Below are positions 55,876-64,000 of a stretch of 64,000 bases of DNA, piece after piece. A program made the translations under genes and the position numbers. The stretch comes from Myxococcota bacterium (GTDB taxonomy: Bacteria; Myxococcota_A; SURF-8): NCBI GenBank assembly GCA_963674735.2, contig CAXXQS010000002.1, positions 1,920,001-1,984,000 on the forward strand. Reading direction: 5' to 3'. How positions within the stretch are numbered: position 1 is the stretch's first letter; every line of letters begins with the position of its first letter. The notes beneath the pieces were generated by a model that worked only from the letters and a program-made list of their open reading frames with translations, did no database searches and was not told the origin of the DNA.

Positions 55876-58278
55876 ATGGGTGAGGAATTCCAGCGGTGCG
55901 TGGTGATCGGAGCGGGCTGGATGGGCGCGAGTATCGCGGCCCTGGTAGCCAGTGCCGGAGTTCCGACGGATTTGCTCGACCGATTGCCGCCGGTGGAACC
56001 CGGCGATGACGAAGTGCAAAACGGCTTCAGCCGGTTTTCCGATGCCTGGCGCAACAGCCTCGCTATCGGAGCCTCGGAGAGAGCTCGTTCACGCGGAGCT
56101 TTTCTTGCTCCCGAAGCGGTGACGCGGGTGCGTACCGGGAACATCGCCGACCACCTGGAGTGGATACGGCAGGCCGATTGGGTGATCGAAGCCGTCCCCG
56201 AGGTGCTGGATGTCAAACGGGCCACCTACGAACGGATACTCCCGCACCTCCGGCCGGAAACGGTTGTCAGTTCAAATACTTCCGGTATTTTGGCTTCGCG
56301 TTTAGCCGAGGGACTTCCCGATGATTTCGCCAAGCGTTTCATGGTGGGACACTTCTTCAATCCGGTGCGCTATATGCGCCTACTTGAAATTGTTGCAAAT
56401 CCGCGCACCGAACGCCAGGCGGTGGAACGACTCAAAGATTTTGCCAGTAAACGGCTTGGAAAAGGGGTGATCGAATCCCGCGACAAGCCGAATTTCGTAG
56501 CCAATCGCATCGGACTTTTTTCGTTGTTGACGGCCATGCACCACGCCCATGAGATGGGGATCGGTGTGCGTGAAGCCGACCGCCTGACCGGTCATGCCTT
56601 GGGACGCGCCAGCTCGGCGACCTTTCGCACGGCCGATCTGATTGGCCTGGATGCGCTGTTGCTGGTTCTAGACAACTTACACGGTATGTTGGCGGGCGAT
56701 CCCTGGCGCGAGCGTTTTAACGCCCCGGCTTTTTTCCGTATTTTGGTTGAACGGGGAAACTGGGGCCAAAAAAGCGGTTCGGGTTTTTATCACTATTTCG
56801 AAGAGAGTCAACGCCCCGGAGATGAGACCTTCAACCTCGATAGTCTGACCTACAAACGCAACGAGACGCGCCGTTTCGCCACGCTGGATCGAGCGTTCGA
56901 ACAACCCAATCCAGGCGAGCGTATCCGAGCCTTGATTTCCGGTGACGACGAGGGCGCCCGATTTGCTTGGGCCGTGTTGCGCGATACTTTGGTGTATGCG
57001 GCGGCGTGTTTGGGGGAGATTACCGATCATCCCATCGCCATCGACCGCGCCATGCGTTGGGGCTACAATTGGGATCTCGGTCCCTTCGAGATCTGGAACT
57101 ATTTGGGATTGCAGGACGTTGCCGAACGTATCGAACGCGATGGGGTGGCCTTGCCTGAAACGGCCAAGCGTCTTCTGGATAGCGAGCAGTCCGGCTGGTA
57201 TTTCGAAGAGCGCGGCCGTCGTTTCGAATGGGATCCGAAAAGCGCCGAGCTCAAACTCATTCCACGCCCTTGTTCCGTGAGTTTGAATACCATGCGGCGC
57301 GAGCATGATGTCCTGCTGACGCAGGGCAATGCGGTTTTAGCCGATTTGGGTGACGGCGTCGCCTGTCTGAGTTTGGCTTCGCGTTATGATGAAGCGCCGA
57401 TCATCGATACACAATTGGTGGGGTTGATTCGTCGAATCCAGGATGAGTGCAACACCCGCAAATTCAAAGGGCTGGTCATTCTATGCGAGGCGGCCGATTT
57501 TCTGCTCGATCTGGATTTCGAAACCCTGCTGGTCCGCATGGCCGATCATGATTGGGATGCGATCGAACAGGAAGTGATCGATCGCCAGCAAGCAAGCCTG
57601 ATGTTGAAACGCATCGGGTTTCCCGTTGTGGGCGCCATCAGCGGCCGCGCCATCGGGGCCGGATGTGAAATCGCCTGCCATATCGGACGTCTGCAAGTTC
57701 ACGCGGAGGCCCAATTCGCCATCGGTAATCTGGCGATGGGACTCATTCCGTCTGGCGGCGGCACCAAGGAACTGTTGTATCGGCTGATGGACCGGGTACG
57801 TATGGACGGTCCCCACCCGCTTGCACGCGCTGCCTTCCAAACCGTTTTTCCCGGCAAGGTGATCAAAGGCGCTTTCGAAGCCCGCAGTAGCGGATTTCTG
57901 CGTCGCGGCGACCGTCTGACGATGGGAATCGACCGCTTGTTGCCGGATGCAAAAGCCATGGTGCTCGACTTGATCGAGAACGGGAACAGTCTGCCCTTGT
58001 CCGCTCCCTTCCACCTGCCCGGTCCCGGTGGAGTGGCGGCTTTACGACTGGAGTTGCAGCATATGCAGCGACAGGGGTTGTTGAGTCCGCACGATGTGAC
58101 GGTCGGGGAGAAGCTGGCGGAAGTGTTATGTGGGGGGGAAACCTCGCCGTTTGAAGAGGTCAGCGAGGCGCAGCTGCTCGACCTGGAGCGCAAGGCCTTT
58201 GTCGATCTGTGCAAAATGGAAAAGACCCAGCAGCGGATCGAGCATTGGGTGAAAACTCGCCGCGTTCTACGCAACTAA
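55876..58278 (+). CDS. FadN-like 3-hydroxyacyl-CoA dehydrogenase / enoyl-CoA hydratase fusion
   Basis: GAGWMG, EAVPE, SSNTSG, HFFNPVRYMRLLE, GQKSGSGFY; C-terminal crotonase-like domain (GAGCE, GLIPSGGG). Confidence 0.88.
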   Translation: MGEEFQRCVVIGAGWMGASIAALVASAGVPTDLLDRLPPVEPGDDEVQNGFSRFSDAWRNSLAIGASERARSRGAFLAPEAVTRVRTGNIADHLEWIRQADWVIEAVPEVLDVKRATYERILPHLRPETVVSSNTSGILASRLAEGLPDDFAKRFMVGHFFNPVRYMRLLEIVANPRTERQAVERLKDFASKRLGKGVIESRDKPNFVANRIGLFSLLTAMHHAHEMGIGVREADRLTGHALGRASSATFRTADLIGLDALLLVLDNLHGMLAGDPWRERFNAPAFFRILVERGNWGQKSGSGFYHYFEESQRPGDETFNLDSLTYKRNETRRFATLDRAFEQPNPGERIRALISGDDEGARFAWAVLRDTLVYAAACLGEITDHPIAIDRAMRWGYNWDLGPFEIWNYLGLQDVAERIERDGVALPETAKRLLDSEQSGWYFEERGRRFEWDPKSAELKLIPRPCSVSLNTMRREHDVLLTQGNAVLADLGDGVACLSLASRYDEAPIIDTQLVGLIRRIQDECNTRKFKGLVILCEAADFLLDLDFETLLVRMADHDWDAIEQEVIDRQQASLMLKRIGFPVVGAISGRAIGAGCEIACHIGRLQVHAEAQFAIGNLAMGLIPSGGGTKELLYRLMDRVRMDGPHPLARAAFQTVFPGKVIKGAFEARSSGFLRRGDRLTMGIDRLLPDAKAMVLDLIENGNSLPLSAPFHLPGPGGVAALRLELQHMQRQGLLSPHDVTVGEKLAEVLCGGETSPFEEVSEAQLLDLERKAFVDLCKMEKTQQRIEHWVKTRRVLRN

Positions 58279-58322: not shown

Positions 58323-58877
58323 TCATGTCTCTCGAACCTTGGTTTTCTTGAACTTCATGCCCGTACATTTGGCTTTTCGGATCGCTTTGACAATGGGCTC
58401 GGCCAAAAACGTCGTACCGCAGCCGCGCGGTCGAATCACTCGACGATCACCCAGTTTCGACCGTTGCAACACTGGAGCGACAACGGATGATTTGCTGATC
58501 TTTCCATCCATGCCATAGCCGTAATCCGTCCATTCCTCGTCCAGCACGTCCGGTCGGTCGGGGATGTGCAGGGCGTAGTAGGTGTGAAGGATGCCGTCTT
58601 GGTCTACAACGATGTTTTCCAGCCATTCGTAGGCATCGCTCGGCGAGGCATTCTGATCGATGATGGATCTAAGAAGTGGCGAACATAATTCCCAGCCTAA
58701 ATCATTGACAAGATAGTCGGTAAGGATTCCATCACGTAGCTCGAAGATTACCGGTTTCCATTTGTCGTAATGCTTCCCTTCCTGTCTCAGTGTCGGATAA
58801 AGGCCCTGAGGTGTATATCCAACACCGAAGGACATGTCGGAACTGCGAAAAAGATTGTAGAATATTTTCTGAGCCAT
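58323..58877 (-). CDS. Imm11 (DUF1629)-like immunity protein, cassette 7
   Basis: DYLVNDLGWELCS, YYALH...DVLD, KAIRKAKCTGMKF; start MAQ with AGGAG RBS. Confidence 0.75.
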   Translation of the reverse strand: MAQKIFYNLFRSSDMSFGVGYTPQGLYPTLRQEGKHYDKWKPVIFELRDGILTDYLVNDLGWELCSPLLRSIIDQNASPSDAYEWLENIVVDQDGILHTYYALHIPDRPDVLDEEWTDYGYGMDGKISKSSVVAPVLQRSKLGDRRVIRPRGCGTTFLAEPIVKAIRKAKCTGMKFKKTKVRET

Positions 58878-58954
58878 GTTATCTCCTAAGCTTTGCAACG
58901 ATTTATTCATACCACTCGGATCGTATCATGCCCGGTTCAGCTGTAATATGGGAG

Positions 58955-59521
58955 TTACACTACACGCTCTATTTTGAATTTCATGCCCGTGCATTTGGCT
59001 TTCTTGATGGCTTTCACAATTGGTTCTGCAAGAAAAATTCCCGGAGAATGCCGAGCACGAACAACTCGGTAACCATCGATTTTATTTCGACTGAATATAG
59101 GCCAGATAACTCTTCGCTTATCAAATGTGCCATCTTGATTATGGCCATAACTGCCAGCAGCTCCCATTGCATCCTCATCCAACACGTCCGGTCGGTCGGG
59201 GATGTGTAGGGCGTAGTAGGTGTGACGGACGCCGTGTGGATCAATAACGATGTTTTCCAGCCATTCGTAGTTGTCTTTGGGCGAGGCGTGCTGATCGATG
59301 ATGGATTTCAGTCGCTCCGAACACAAGACCCAGCCTAAGTCGTTGACAAGGTAATCGGTAAGGATTCCATCACGTAGCTCGAAGGTTACTGGAACCCAAT
59401 TATCGAAAGACGTTTCTTCCCAACGTAGAGTCGGATAGAGACCATTTGGTGTATAACCGACTCCGAAGGCAAAATTGCCGGAGCGAAACAATGAGTAATA
59501 TTTCATCGGCGATTTATTCAT
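58955..59521 (-). CDS. Imm11-like immunity protein, cassette 6 (divergent C-terminal half)
   Basis: Paralogue of the others; start MNKSP with GGGAG RBS. Confidence 0.75.
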   Translation of the reverse strand: MNKSPMKYYSLFRSGNFAFGVGYTPNGLYPTLRWEETSFDNWVPVTFELRDGILTDYLVNDLGWVLCSERLKSIIDQHASPKDNYEWLENIVIDPHGVRHTYYALHIPDRPDVLDEDAMGAAGSYGHNQDGTFDKRRVIWPIFSRNKIDGYRVVRARHSPGIFLAEPIVKAIKKAKCTGMKFKIERVV

Positions 59522-59576
59522 AGCAAGATCTCCCGTCAATACCATTCACTGCGAACCATACCCGGTTCAGTGCTGT

Positions 59577-60131
59577 TCATGTCTCTCGAACCTTGGTTTT
59601 TTTGAACTTCATGCCCGTACACTTGGCCTTTCGGATAGCTTTGACCACTGACTCGTTTAAAAACACGATGCTGGAATCACGTGGCCGAAAAATCCCATGA
59701 TCGTTGAGCTTCGACCGTTGGAGAATCGGAGCGATAATGCAGGACTTGTCGATGGTTCCATCCGCATTGCGACCGTAATCCGTCCATTCCTCGTCTAGCA
59801 CATCCGGTGGATCGGGGATGTACAAGGCGTAGTAAGAGTGGTGAATACCGTCTTGGTCCACGACGATATTTTCCAGCCATTCGTAGGCATCGTTCGGCGA
59901 GGCATGTTGATCGATAATGGATCTAAGAAGCTGGGAGCACAATTCCCAGCCTAAGTCATTTGCAAGATAGTCGGTAAGAATTCCGCCGCGTAGCTCGAAG
60001 GTTACCGGTTTCCATTTATCGTAATGCTTCCCTTCTTGTTCCAGTGTCGGATAAAGGCCTTGAGGTGTATAACCAACGCCGAAGGACATGTCGGAACTGC
60101 GAAACAGTTTATAGAAAAGTTGTTGAGCCAT
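59577..60131 (-). CDS. Imm11-like immunity protein, cassette 5
   Basis: Paralogue; start MAQQ with AGGAG RBS. Confidence 0.75.
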   Translation of the reverse strand: MAQQLFYKLFRSSDMSFGVGYTPQGLYPTLEQEGKHYDKWKPVTFELRGGILTDYLANDLGWELCSQLLRSIIDQHASPNDAYEWLENIVVDQDGIHHSYYALYIPDPPDVLDEEWTDYGRNADGTIDKSCIIAPILQRSKLNDHGIFRPRDSSIVFLNESVVKAIRKAKCTGMKFKKTKVRET

Positions 60132-60200
60132 GTCATCTCCTAAGCTTTGCAACGATTTATTCATACCACTCGGATCGTACCATACCCGGTTCGATGCTGT

Positions 60201-60755
60201 TCATGTCTCCCGCACCGTGGTTTTCTTGAACTTCATGCCCGTACATTTGGCTTTTCGGATAGCTTTCACGATGGGTTCAGCAAAAGAGGTCGTATTGCAG
60301 CCCCGCGGTCGAATCAGCCGACGATCACCCAGTTTCGATCGTTGAAGCATCGGAGCGACAATGCAGGATTTGTCGATGGTTCCATCCGCATTGCGACCGT
60401 AATCCGTCCATTCCTCGTCCAGCACATCCGGTGGATCGGGGATGTGCAGGGCGTAGTAGGTGTGACGGATGCCATTTTGGTCCACGATAATGTTTTCCAG
60501 CCATTCGTAGTCGTCCTGGGGTGAAGTATGCTGATCGATAATGGATTTCAAAAGATTCGAACAAAGCTCCCAACCTAAGTCGTTGACAAGGTAGTCGGAA
60601 AGAATGCCATCTCGTAACTCGAAAGTTACCGGAATCCATTTATCGTAATGCTTTCCTTCCCAAACTAGTGTGGCGTCGATGTCCCTAGGTGTATAGCCGA
60701 CGCCGAAGGACATGTCGGAACTGCGAAAAACATCGTAGAATAGTAATTGTTTCAT
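60201..60755 (-). CDS. Imm11-like immunity protein, cassette 4
   Basis: Protein identical to cassette 3. Confidence 0.75.
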   Translation of the reverse strand: MKQLLFYDVFRSSDMSFGVGYTPRDIDATLVWEGKHYDKWIPVTFELRDGILSDYLVNDLGWELCSNLLKSIIDQHTSPQDDYEWLENIIVDQNGIRHTYYALHIPDPPDVLDEEWTDYGRNADGTIDKSCIVAPMLQRSKLGDRRLIRPRGCNTTSFAEPIVKAIRKAKCTGMKFKKTTVRET

Positions 60756-60805
60756 CCTTCCCCCTTAATACCACTCGGATCGTACCATACCCGGTTCGAT
60801 GCTGT

Positions 60806-61360
60806 TCATGTCTCCCGCACCGTGGTTTTCTTGAACTTCATGCCCGTACATTTGGCTTTTCGGATAGCTTTCACGATGGGTTCAGCAAAAGAGGTCGTAT
60901 TGCAGCCCCGCGGTCGAATCAGCCGACGATCACCCAGTTTCGATCGTTGAAGCATCGGAGCGACAATGCAGGATTTGTCGATGGTTCCATCCGCATTGCG
61001 ACCGTAATCCGTCCATTCCTCGTCCAGCACATCCGGTGGATCGGGGATGTGCAGGGCGTAGTAGGTGTGACGGATGCCATTTTGGTCCACGATAATGTTT
61101 TCCAGCCATTCGTAGTCGTCCTGGGGTGAAGTATGCTGATCGATAATGGATTTCAAAAGATTCGAACAAAGCTCCCAACCTAAGTCGTTGACAAGGTAGT
61201 CGGAAAGAATGCCATCTCGTAACTCGAAAGTTACCGGAATCCATTTATCGTAATGCTTTCCTTCCCAAACTAGTGTGGCGTCGATGTCCCTAGGTGTATA
61301 GCCGACGCCGAAGGACATGTCGGAACTGCGAAAAACATCGTAGAATAGTAATTGTTTCAT
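60806..61360 (-). CDS. Imm11-like immunity protein, cassette 3
   Basis: Paralogue; GGGGGAAGG RBS. Confidence 0.75.
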   Translation of the reverse strand: MKQLLFYDVFRSSDMSFGVGYTPRDIDATLVWEGKHYDKWIPVTFELRDGILSDYLVNDLGWELCSNLLKSIIDQHTSPQDDYEWLENIIVDQNGIRHTYYALHIPDPPDVLDEEWTDYGRNADGTIDKSCIVAPMLQRSKLGDRRLIRPRGCNTTSFAEPIVKAIRKAKCTGMKFKKTTVRET

Positions 61361-61410
61361 CCTTCCCCCTTAATACCATTCGGAGCGAACCATGCCCGGT
61401 TCGATGTTGT

Positions 61411-61971
61411 TCATGTCTCCCGCACCGTGGTTTTCTTGAACTTCATGCCCGTACACTTGGCCTTTCGAATGGCTTTGACAATGGGGTCGGCCAAAAACGT
61501 CGTGCCGCAGCCGCGCGGTCGGATCACCCGACGATCACCCAGTTTCGATCGTTGAAGCATCGGAGCGACAATGCAGGATTTGTCGATGGTTCCATCTGCA
61601 TTGCGACCGTAATCCGTCCATTCCTCGTCCAGCACGTCCGGCCGGTCGGGGATGTGCAGGGCGTAGTATGTGTGACGGACACCGTGTGGATCAATAACGA
61701 TGTTTTCCAGCCATTCGTAGGCGTCGCTCGGTGAGGCGTTCTGATCGATGGTATTTTTTAGTCGTTCCGAGCATAGGTCCCATCCATACACGATGGCCTG
61801 ATAATCCGTGATTACTCCCACTCGTAAAATGAATTCCACGGGTTCCCACATGTTGTTCTGTTGTCTATCCAACAACATCCATTGCGGTGTTTTATTGATT
61901 ACCTCTGCCACTGGATGATTCAAGTCATCATCCATGAATAGCTTGTAGAAGCTAATAAAAGTATTTTTCAT
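61411..61971 (-). CDS. Imm11-like immunity protein, cassette 2 (divergent N-terminal third)
   Basis: Paralogue; AGGAGG RBS. Confidence 0.75.
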   Translation of the reverse strand: MKNTFISFYKLFMDDDLNHPVAEVINKTPQWMLLDRQQNNMWEPVEFILRVGVITDYQAIVYGWDLCSERLKNTIDQNASPSDAYEWLENIVIDPHGVRHTYYALHIPDRPDVLDEEWTDYGRNADGTIDKSCIVAPMLQRSKLGDRRVIRPRGCGTTFLADPIVKAIRKAKCTGMKFKKTTVRET

Positions 61972-62025
61972 ATTACCCCTCCTATGGATACCACTCGGAT
62001 CGTACCATGCCCGGTTCGACGCCGT

Positions 62026-62580
62026 TCATGTCTCTCGAACCTTGGTTTTCTTGAGCTTCATGCCCATGCATTTAGCTTTTCGAATGGCTTTGACAATGGG
62101 CTCGGCCAAAAACGTCGTACCGCAGCCGCGCGGTCGGATCAGCCGACGATCGCCCAGTTTCGATCGTTGCAACACTGGAGCGACAACGGATGATTTGCTG
62201 ATCTTTCCATCCATGCCATAGCCGTAATCCGTCCATTCCTCGTCCAGCACATCCGGTCTGTCGGGGATATGCAGGGCGTAGTAGGTGTGACGGATGCCGT
62301 CTTGGTCCACGACGACGTTTTCCAGCCATTCGTAGGCATCGCTCGGTGAGGCGTTCTGATCGATGATGGATCTAAGAAGTGGCGAACATAATTCCCAGCC
62401 TAAATCATTGACAAGATAGTCGGAAAGAATGCCATCACGTAGCTTGAAGGTTACCGGTTTCCATTCATCGTAATGCTTCCCTTCTTGTCTCAGTGTTGGA
62501 TAAAGGCCCTGAGGTGTATAACCAACGCCGAAGGACATATCAGAACTGCGAAACAGTTTATAGAAAAGTTGCTGAGCCAT
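62026..62580 (-). CDS. Imm11-like immunity protein, cassette 1 (presumed cognate)
   Basis: Starts 25 bp after the toxin stop; AGGAG RBS. Confidence 0.78.
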   Translation of the reverse strand: MAQQLFYKLFRSSDMSFGVGYTPQGLYPTLRQEGKHYDEWKPVTFKLRDGILSDYLVNDLGWELCSPLLRSIIDQNASPSDAYEWLENVVVDQDGIRHTYYALHIPDRPDVLDEEWTDYGYGMDGKISKSSVVAPVLQRSKLGDRRLIRPRGCGTTFLAEPIVKAIRKAKCMGMKLKKTKVRET

Positions 62581-62605
62581 GTCATCTCCTAAGCTTTGCA
62601 ACGAT

Positions 62606-63592
62606 TTATTCATACCATTCGGAGCGTATCATGCCCGGTTCATCCAGCACTTTTTCACGAACAAAACGGCCAAACAGATCCAGGAATTTATCAGCATCGG
62701 CACCGGCTTCACGTTGTGCTTCTTCCATTTTCTCCAATACAAATTTATGATAATCCTCCGCGTGCCGCCCGGTATGCGGGATTTCAACCTTGTTCCACGC
62801 ACCGTCGAGGTCGAGATCGTAAAAATCGGCGATCTTCTTGAACTCGGGTGTGTACTCCGAATGGTGGGTGTTGGATGCCAGGTGGTGCGTGTGGACTGGG
62901 AAAGACTTCAGCATGTCGCGGATGGCCGCGCGGCGTTCGGGCAGATCGTCCATGGCCTGTAGTGTCCGGCGGGCTTCGGCGACGCTCAGGAATTTCTTCC
63001 CGAATATGTAAACGACCGGACCGATCAGCAGGTCGGAAGGATCGGGAACACCCACCGCTTCAACGACTTCGGCGGCGGCGGCCAGGGCATCGGCGGCCTT
63101 TTGACCTGCCCGGTTCACGTCGGCGAGATAGGCTTGGCTGTCCGAGCCTTCGCCCGCCAGTGCTTGTTCGTGAGCCACCTTCCGTCGGATCTTCGCCTCC
63201 GCCTGATCCACGGGATCGCCGGTGAACCAGGATTTGACCCAGCCGCCCAGATTGTCCGCGTTCCAGAAATCCGATGGCGTTTCCGTTTCTTCATCCTCTC
63301 CGGTGAAGTGGAAGTCCATCTCGTCCATCCCTTCGTCGACCGGCGGTCTCGCGGCTACTTCCAATTTGCAGGCGCAATTGGGATGCAGGGGTGGGTGGAC
63401 GTCCCAATCCTGGGCGAGGCGTGTTTCTCCGTCGAGCGCCGCGCAGGCGTCGCAGGTCTTGTCGCCCGAGGTCACCCAGGTCAGGTATACCCGGTCGCCG
63501 TTATACCCGGCGACGGCAGCCAGGTGTCCGAACCGGCCCAGTTTCGCATAGGCCCGGTAGGTTTGGAGTCGTTCCGTTTCTATCTGCGCCAC
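62606..63592 (-). CDS. Polymorphic toxin: N-terminal minimal MuF (phage head morphogenesis-like) motif plus C-terminal AHH-like HNH nuclease
   Basis: WVTSGDKTCDACAALDG...PPLHPNCAC (MuF-like); THHLAS...LDGAWNKVEIP-HTGRH..YH (AHH-like); GTG start with GAGGAG RBS; followed by Imm11-like genes. Confidence 0.75.
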   Translation of the reverse strand: MAQIETERLQTYRAYAKLGRFGHLAAVAGYNGDRVYLTWVTSGDKTCDACAALDGETRLAQDWDVHPPLHPNCACKLEVAARPPVDEGMDEMDFHFTGEDEETETPSDFWNADNLGGWVKSWFTGDPVDQAEAKIRRKVAHEQALAGEGSDSQAYLADVNRAGQKAADALAAAAEVVEAVGVPDPSDLLIGPVVYIFGKKFLSVAEARRTLQAMDDLPERRAAIRDMLKSFPVHTHHLASNTHHSEYTPEFKKIADFYDLDLDGAWNKVEIPHTGRHAEDYHKFVLEKMEEAQREAGADADKFLDLFGRFVREKVLDEPGMIRSEWYE

Positions 63593-63714
63593 GATTGTCT
63601 CTCCTCACATGGATTCAAAGCACCGGTATCAGCATAGCGCATGCGGTGTAGAAATCAAGGAGCGAAAGAGTTCAAATAAGCGCATGAGGGAGCATGAAGG
63701 AGCGTGCAGGAGCG

Positions 63715-63999
63715 TCAGGGTGCATCGGGAGCGTCGGGGTCGTCTTCCAGATTCCACATGAATCGGCAGCGGCCCATCATGCAGGTTTCGATCGGTAAAC
63801 AATCGTCTTGATCCGAACATTGCGGTGGTGAGCACTCCTCGGCGATGCATAAAGCACCGATGGGGCAACTCGTGTCGTATTCACAACTCTGCTTGCGGCA
63901 AAGGGACTCGATGCAGGCGCTTTGGGGTGGGCAGTCGATGTTTGTTTCGCAGGGGAAGCTTTCACAGCCTGCCCGGTAACAAAGATAGCCGACCGGGCA
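63715..63999 (-). CDS. C-terminal end of a Cys-rich repeat protein (runs in from beyond the window)
   Basis: Not in ORF track. Open frame CPVGYLCYRAGCESFPCETNIDCPPQSACIESLCRKQSCEYDTSCPIGALCIAEECSPPQCSDQDDCLPIETCMMGRCRFMWNLEDDPDAPDAP* with a C-x5-C-x5-C-x4-C repeat. Confidence 0.75.
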   Translation of the reverse strand, partial: CPVGYLCYRAGCESFPCETNIDCPPQSACIESLCRKQSCEYDTSCPIGALCIAEECSPPQCSDQDDCLPIETCMMGRCRFMWNLEDDPDAPDAP

Positions 64000-64000
64000 A

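Follow-up and report, generated by a model that had tools for sequence, protein, structure and literature searches.

MuF polymorphic toxins have been described as exclusive to temperate phages, with 96% of bacterial muf genes located in prophages or their remnants (Jamet 2017; PMC5576092). As outlined there and in the reports on Apk2 (PMC12226406) and Bxa (PMC11699363), these are full-length proteins encoded beside the portal gene, in which a Cys/His motif stands directly before a variable toxic tip, with an immunity gene downstream and loading into the capsid proposed. Zhang et al. (2012; PMC3482391) suggested that MuF toxins are packaged by the terminase, portal and capsid genes of prophage remnants linked to them; capsid-based delivery from such remnants has thus been proposed already, and MuF toxin delivery still has the standing of a hypothesis in the sources cited. 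Two members of the superfamily that carry no toxin, gp7 of SPP1 and gp44 of 80alpha, enter capsids via the portal, gp44 being ejected with the DNA (PMC6316719, PMC12889711); neither half of gp44 complements alone, and its C-terminal part binds DNA (PMC7290940). GTAs, including Dd1 of Desulfovibrio (PMC11841831), are compact, host-kept head-tail clusters without replication genes; they are defined by the packaging of host DNA, and the passages on them in that source mention no toxin cargo. MuF-fused lipocones are mentioned, without detail in the passage concerned, in PMC12419801.

The mini-MuF-AHH polymorphic toxin gene analysed here, from a 64,000-nucleotide stretch of Myxococcota DNA (the window) belonging to a genome that is 94% complete (G000), shares with the MuF phage toxins the Cys/His motif before the tip and the downstream immunity gene, but differs from them in retaining only the last ~80 aa of MuF, in lying 870 kb from the virion genes that we found and in having relatives with cell-wall enzymes as tips. 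Compared with the proposal of Zhang et al. (PMC3482391), the virion cluster is conserved and MuF-less, and the cargo would be unlinked and truncated. Sub-cut-off HMM matches (TIGR01641, PF04233) and predicted fold place the toxin end in the superfamily of gp7 and gp44, which, as described, need nearly the whole protein, whereas the toxin has no long helical N-terminal part. In a literature search that covered few subscription papers, we found no description of knuckle-only, unlinked toxins or of a link between MuF and GTAs, and there is a real chance that the AHH mini-MuF toxin marks a new delivery route.

The toxin gene, its immunity array and its surroundings

The preliminary description, made from the letters of the window, had read the gene as a stand-alone toxin in which ~80 aa of a MuF end, with W, CxxC and HPNCxC motifs, precede an acidic linker without any signal peptide. 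This was borne out: the ORF (328 aa; Table 1) starts with GTG 8 nt downstream of the ribosome-binding sequence GAGGAG, the motif residues are W39, C47-x2-C50 and H70-P-N-C73-x-C75, and the N-terminus has neither a signal peptide nor a hydrophobic stretch. Logan contigs from two runs of one sample, which may be the source sample, covered positions 62588-64000 with zero differences. The Cys/His knuckle was invariant in all 94 of the 94 rows aligned, rows that had been selected by the same motif, and, judging by this motif, it probably binds metal. As for the kinship with Phage_Mu_F (Pfam PF04233), it stood in part, residues 5-77 matching profile positions 32-111 of 112 with 24.4 bits against a cut-off of 29.6; TIGR01641 (NCBIfam) matched the same part with 21.8 bits, below its cut-off of 39.65, and several PHROG minor-head families did so weakly, down to E 8e-6, with no PHROG match to the leader (residues 1-36) alone. 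The structure predicted for residues 1-84 from a 94-row alignment (pLDDT 92, pTM 0.78) consists of two helices, then a small strand-helix unit carrying CxxC and HxxCxC, and the predicted structures most similar to it belong to phage minor capsid proteins (best E 1.6e-3, with no match reaching 1e-3). Among solved structures there was no sequence match, and the widest fold search reached a best Z of 3.6, with none of at least 5; such weak scores are not proof of a new fold.

Behind the knuckle, residues 84-110 are 41% D/E, and hydropathy in the linker and pre-toxin region peaks at 1.29; residues 84-205 possibly serve membrane crossing. Two Asp-Pro motifs lie at 126 and 184, as noted earlier. The AHH domain (PF14412; residues 230-303) scored 39.6 bits, above its cut-off of 22.3, with THH at 235-237, and its His and Asn residues are presumably catalytic, as in the family. 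The gene is the sole PF04233 match and the sole AHH match in G000, and word-index homologue searches with residues 1-95 and 96-328, confined to near lengths, recovered the toxin itself alone.

Table 1. Positions of the toxin gene, its parts and neighbours, and of the candidate virion cluster (window coordinates unless a contig is given).
Feature	Position	Strand	Remarks
Mini-MuF-AHH polymorphic toxin gene	62606..63592	(-)	328 aa ORF, GTG start
Order-specific leader, residues 1-36	63485..63592	(-)	Predicted as two helices; aligns with the final helices of MuF
MuF Cys/His knuckle, residues 37-80	63353..63484	(-)	C47, C50, H70, C73, C75
Acidic linker and helical, mildly hydrophobic pre-toxin region, residues 84-205	62978..63343	(-)	
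AHH (HNH/EndoVII-fold) nuclease domain	62684..62905	(-)	H236, H237, N267, H273, H277, Y281
Imm11-like gene 1	62026..62613	(-)	16.9 bits (weak); overlaps toxin stop
Imm11 gene 2	61411..61971	(-)	29.4 bits; N-terminal half divergent
Imm11-like gene 3	60806..61360	(-)	Same protein as gene 4
Imm11-like gene 4	60201..60755	(-)	Same protein as gene 3
Imm11 gene 5	59577..60164	(-)	35.7 bits
Imm11 gene 6	58955..59545	(-)	31.8 bits; 62% identity to gene 1, most divergent copy
Imm11 gene 7	58323..58910	(-)	24.5 bits; 93% identity to gene 1
Six 30-bp copies of the toxin's last codons (62612-62641)	within 58909..62017: 61988-62017, 61373-61402, 60768-60797, 60163-60192, 59539-59568, 58909-58938	(-)	One ahead of each Imm gene 2-7
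Upstream Cys-rich lipoprotein-like gene, 3' part	63715..64000	(-)	Neighbour; relatives have other neighbours
GTA-like head-tail cluster	G000:C2:1094006-1111337 (L366, L367)	minus	17.3 kb, ~870 kb from toxin

Directly downstream of the toxin lie seven tandem Imm11-family genes (58323-62613), four of which (genes 2, 5, 6 and 7) scored above the Pfam cut-off; genes 2-7 are 62-93% identical to gene 1. The fatty-acid genes that the preliminary description had put immediately downstream (their 'fad' names were read from sequence, without a family scan) end at 58278, beyond the array. Gene 1 is presumed to encode the cognate immunity protein, and its translation more probably begins at the second Met (62580), which follows AGGAG. 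Because contig depth is about twofold across the repeat formed by genes 3 and 4 (two runs, one sample), an assembly error there is unlikely. The 30-bp copies of the toxin's last codons indicate that the junction between toxin end and immunity gene was duplicated in tandem. AHH nuclease/Imm11 pairs (PF14412, PF07791) occur in T6SS, Rhs and myxobacterial SitA toxins. The present locus resembles these in its families and its tandem poly-immunity array with toxin-end remnants, but the toxin has no Rhs, PAAR, VgrG or lipoprotein signal. The AHH gene, predicted to encode an antibacterial DNase, and its Imm11 array very probably constitute a toxin-immunity system.

On the other side of the toxin, the upstream neighbour encodes, as described earlier, a Cys-rich protein (274 aa, its start resembling that of a lipoprotein). 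Outside the window, the next 26 kb hold host-like genes, and the idea of a prophage immediately beyond it was rejected; in the first 20 kb, one of 15 ORFs of at least 100 aa matched a viral-locus ORF, and that one looks like a sugar epimerase. The claim that no phage genes adjoin the toxin therefore holds for those recognisable in the window and in these 26 kb, and with no neighbour recognised as phage-like the gene does not fit the head-module setting, beside portal and terminase, of the known MuF toxins. The related claim that portal and terminase are missing is correct for the window but not for the genome, where portal, terminase and capsid genes lie far off. A promoter and terminator scan at the toxin locus yielded no signal above chance, and comparison of the regions upstream of the toxins in G000 and two related genomes (G005 and G006) gave no convincing common motif. 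The gap upstream of the toxin (63640-63714) contains short imperfect repeats and a weak TTGATT/TATGCT promoter-like pair, below the scan threshold.

Relatives of the toxin within the order

Three of the order's 10 genomes, G000, G005 and G006, carry a short-form toxin, in each case with the same 84-aa N-terminus (37-52% identical). That of G006 (N-terminus 52%, linker 33% over 99 aa) has a different AHH tip and an Imm11 gene; a second copy in this genome is broken, and the G006 copies sit among mobile elements. That of G005 (N-terminus 37%) is fused directly to Tlde1, followed by a membrane-protein gene, and is located between tatC-like and pilB-like genes; the homologue neighbourhoods surveyed are unrelated to one another and non-phage. 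An HMM search of 1.84 billion representatives returned five proteins with E < 1e-10, including P0003 (Tlde1) and P0004 (HExxH), and the tips found among relatives of the AHH toxin comprise a second AHH, Tlde1 (twice) and HExxH. Since the N-terminus is kept and the tips are swapped among the order's relatives, these proteins make up a polymorphic toxin family; together with the immunity array, the tip-swapped relatives strengthen the earlier reading of a stand-alone toxin with a minimal MuF end. They do not favour the suggestion that the Asp-Pro motifs are cleavage points: the G006 relative retains the first motif, its intact copy has Glu-Pro in place of the second, and the idea was also dropped because both Tlde1 members lack the linker altogether.

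In a tree of the knuckle, the five mini-MuF N-termini group on a single branch (SH-aLRT 96), apart from the prophage MuFs of the order and not nested among them, though the tree has few columns (49, with 46 of 70 forks open and one row, L151, mis-picked). Prophages with a full-length, tail-less MuF adjoining a portal-like gene are present in G002, G003, G006 and G008. Closely related prophages (L008-L010, L013-L019) recur across the order in 1-5 copies per genome, with the full-length MuF between the portal-like gene and an adenine-methylase-like or AbiE-like gene.

Such prophages, and the small tail-less MuF genes that occur in phages, would fit a toxin that rides ordinary temperate phages infecting the lineage or induced in it, poisoning their progeny or weaponising them and leaving the fixed virion cluster unused. 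We regard this as distinctly unlikely: G000 has no such prophage, with its one MuF match and none to the portal of the relatives, and the mini-MuF branch falls outside the prophage MuFs, subject to the few columns of the tree. Quite improbable, too, is that the gene is a displaced relic of a phage MuF cassette, retained mainly for its immunity array or for addiction, without ever being delivered. A relic would accord with the broken copy and the mobile surroundings in G006, the presence of the toxin in so few genomes of the order and the multiplication of the immunity genes to seven, but not with an intact ribosome-binding site, a start and a CxxC position (47) that are identical in four diverged members, or a third codon position that diverges more than positions 1-2 (0.31-0.44 vs 0.46-0.65). 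Moreover, periplasm-acting tips with exported immunity would be senseless as cytoplasmic addiction toxins, and the knuckle is retained by roughly half the genomes in two orders with small genomes (see below).

An unlinked, MuF-less virion cluster as candidate vehicle

The preliminary description had suggested that the toxin hitchhikes on particles encoded in trans, and a conserved, MuF-less head-tail cluster in G000 (Table 1) now provides a concrete candidate for such a carrier. A Pfam search of G000 for terminase (Terminase_6N) came back empty; blastp with viral-locus proteins identified a terminase at C2:1109495, heading the cluster. Since Terminase_6N missed it, other negative family searches in G000 may likewise miss divergent genes. 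The cluster contains small and large terminase, portal, scaffold, capsid, head-tail and tail tube genes, as well as two chaperone-like genes, a very short tape-measure-like gene (240 aa), a large hub-like gene and a small membrane gene, those without a family match being named by position. Its 21 ORFs matched head or tail families of PHROGs or nothing: TerL phrog_2 (E 1e-34), major head phrog_212 (E 6e-66), scaffold phrog_194 (E 2e-4), tail phrog_290 (E 1e-11) and, weakly, portal (E 0.036). No MuF, integrase or replication family was recognised in the cluster, nor any tRNA or long flanking repeat, and its GC content (0.606) is the same as that of its flanks. It thus resembles GTAs, which are defined by host-DNA packaging, in being a compact head-tail module of host-like composition without recognised integrase or replication genes.

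The cluster is conserved in six of the 10 genomes of the order, across two families. The capsid gene is single-copy, with 70-82% identity in G002, G003, G004, G006 and G009 (frameshifted in the last) and 29% in G007; beyond the order, only one of 191 genomes of the phylum gave a match. Gene order is kept across the related regions; on the left, only G003 has a flank in common with G000, those of G004 and G006 being different, and on the right no flank is shared. None of the six related cluster regions examined has a MuF motif. G008 has only a portal gene, with a stop, and a terminase gene, G001 has nothing, and G005, which is 79% complete, has no portal or capsid match and a partial terminase at a contig end. 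The full cluster is therefore present in two of the three toxin-bearing genomes, the third being the incomplete G005, and four cluster-bearing genomes (G002, G003, G004 and G009) have no mini-MuF toxin; coupling between toxin and cluster within the order is loose. We also searched G000 for VgrG, TssC/VipB, contractile sheath and VirB4 and found no family match, with PF04717, PF04984 and PF05943 giving none and positive controls being detected. The alternative put forward earlier, that the knuckle is an address for another delivery system, found no VgrG, VipB, sheath or VirB4 match to rest on in this genome, nor did a role as a T6SS or eCIS effector.

The domain order, the immunity array, the tip exchange and the conserved, unlinked, MuF-less cluster are evident from sequence; that the toxin is cargo of a domesticated GTA-like particle made by this 17-kb cluster is, in our judgement, an evenly balanced proposition. 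The MuF-derived N-terminus would be a loading tag for a phage-derived, host-kept particle, its knuckle binding metal and docking, while the particle assembles, either at the portal or in the capsid interior. Lysis of a small number of cells would set loaded particles free, and these would eject the protein into a neighbour's cell envelope; nuclease tips would cross the inner membrane with the help of the helical linker, and cell-wall tips such as Tlde1 would need none. Imm11 would spare kin, with the extra copies widening or strengthening protection. Besides the loose coupling and the differing flanks, further observations count against the cluster as the vehicle. The leader of the G000 toxin matches none of the virion-cluster proteins of its genome, unlike the alphaproteobacterial case described below, and, as neither half of gp44 complements alone, an isolated MuF end might be missing the surface that binds the portal. 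A host-owned minimal MuF is the smallest candidate capsid-loading tag, and the delivery question can be tested with one 80-aa domain.

Knuckle toxins and virion genes in other lineages

The CxxC lies within the first 62 residues in 55 of 157 stored proteins, many with lysozyme, Tlde1 or unknown tails. With one DNA motif pattern, which is biased toward short forms and was run on viral and bacterial collections, a short N-terminus plus a tail of at least 70 aa was found at 29 of 44 bacterial loci (one duplicate dropped, one without a matching ORF) versus none of 19 viral loci. A separate viral scan, in which 78 of 80 loci were parsed, yielded 73 full-length MuF proteins, three cut by contig ends and two short ones. 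Four viral contigs (L116, L117, L122, L127) carry tail-less MuF-end genes of ~96-99 aa.

For the neighbours we relied on Pfam, because comparison with viral loci missed the true prophage controls L154 and L166. Among 101 of the 146 listed neighbours of 24 genome loci that were scanned (presumed wrong-frame ORFs left out), portal was found only beside two Mu-like full-length controls. Neighbours of short forms are barstar (three loci), LprI (one, L138) or unnamed and often exported, amid housekeeping genes; one locus adjoins an integrase and one a phage lysozyme. Tips in this wider class include barnase-like RNase, Ntox44, GH108, phage lysozyme, M23 and SAA. Often below the MuF family cut-off, these toxins amount to an overlooked class, with examples in cultured Pseudodesulfovibrio isolates.

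In Desulfovibrionaceae, an Rhs cleavage motif is followed by the knuckle in L151 (9667-11211), L219 and L237, so that the released C-terminal part of these Rhs proteins starts with it. L218, L220 and L257 have a C-terminal knuckle after scaffold-tail-like motifs, and the latter two also an N-terminal enzyme-like domain. Given its place after Rhs cores and at the C-terminus in L220 and L257, the knuckle is not always a front-end tag. The Rhs proteins, whose tails are like those of the stand-alone forms, favour a real toxin that leaves the cell independently of phage, by lysis, vesicles, cell contact or a pilus or type II machine, the knuckle then being a small folding, uptake or recombination-anchor module before the tip. 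So do the many lysozyme, Tlde1 and M23 peptidase tips with exported immunity (LprI in L138), and the G005 gene, which adjoins type IV pilus genes in a genome where no capsid cluster was detected. Cell-wall-type tips with exported immunity recall colicin-like bacteriocins. We nevertheless consider such an exit rather unlikely, in view of the missing signal peptide, the searches of G000 for VgrG, VipB, sheath and VirB4 that gave no match, and two findings from other lineages: toxins located within virion clusters (the order of G306) and a leader derived from a capsid operon (the order of G303).

The preferred reading, in which the toxins are loaded into host-kept particles, draws on three other lineages with knuckle toxins that commonly also carry virion genes; related genomes in the counts that follow are kin and hence not independent observations. 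The alphaproteobacterial order of G303 (genomes of 0.5-1.1 Mb) has the knuckle in 75 of 151 genomes and a terminase match, mostly a single ORF of ~205 aa, in 125 of 151. Both occur in 66 of the 75, and terminase without knuckle in 59 of 76, a co-occurrence barely above base rate. At the loci read, the terminase belongs to a podophage-like cluster (capsid, portal, tail tubes, split terminase) amid housekeeping genes. In L338-L345 (G557, G564, G601, G625), where the terminase is split, the ATPase and nuclease genes flank a dnaB-like gene. Among 29 knuckle loci read in this order, one was an ordinary prophage MuF, and most others had a lineage leader of 57-164 aa and a cell-wall-enzyme-like tail. 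Five leaders were tested, and three of them align with the final ~35 positions of phrog_3742 (E 1e-5 to 3e-3). The gene directly ahead of the capsid gene, by position a scaffold, belongs to this family; an Atlas search with an alphaproteobacterial leader gave no usable match. The toxin of G557 is encoded 1 kb behind the portal gene.

The order of G306, possibly Gastranaerophilales, has the knuckle in 70 and a terminase in 89 of 151 genomes. In all four genomes picked for having toxin and terminase on one contig, virion clusters enclose the toxin along with immunity-like genes. Each of these toxins is preceded by a conserved gene of ~165 aa without a named PHROG match (L369:10329-10817, L370:13618-14103, L371:10926-11444, L372:11082-11621), possibly an adaptor or a split MuF N-terminus. 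In Desulfovibrionaceae (the family of G302, L404-L415), the knuckle occurs in some form in 65 of 201 genomes and a T7-type portal, mostly single-copy, in 132 of 201; of 17 genomes inspected that have a non-phage knuckle, 16 carry this portal. It may belong to the Dd1 GTA family. The Dd1 GTA particle is podovirus-like in shape.

Tentatively, and somewhat short of even confidence, we suggest that several lineages independently domesticated different virion modules as capsid-based toxin delivery machines, loaded via a portable MuF knuckle. The module may be siphovirus-like here and podophage-like in the alphaproteobacterial order and in Desulfovibrionaceae, and loading might sometimes be helped by a scaffold-tail mimic, the toxins being scattered over the chromosome. 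If this is true, it would amount to an unrecognised secretion route in bacterial warfare and give some GTA-like particles a weapon function, a possible reason for bacteria to keep costly GTA-like clusters even with genomes under 1.1 Mb.

A genome of Oscillospiraceae, G305, has two unknown genes behind those for terminase and portal, with no capsid gene in the stretch read (L416:6216-10831); the same genome carries a knuckle-M23 toxin elsewhere.
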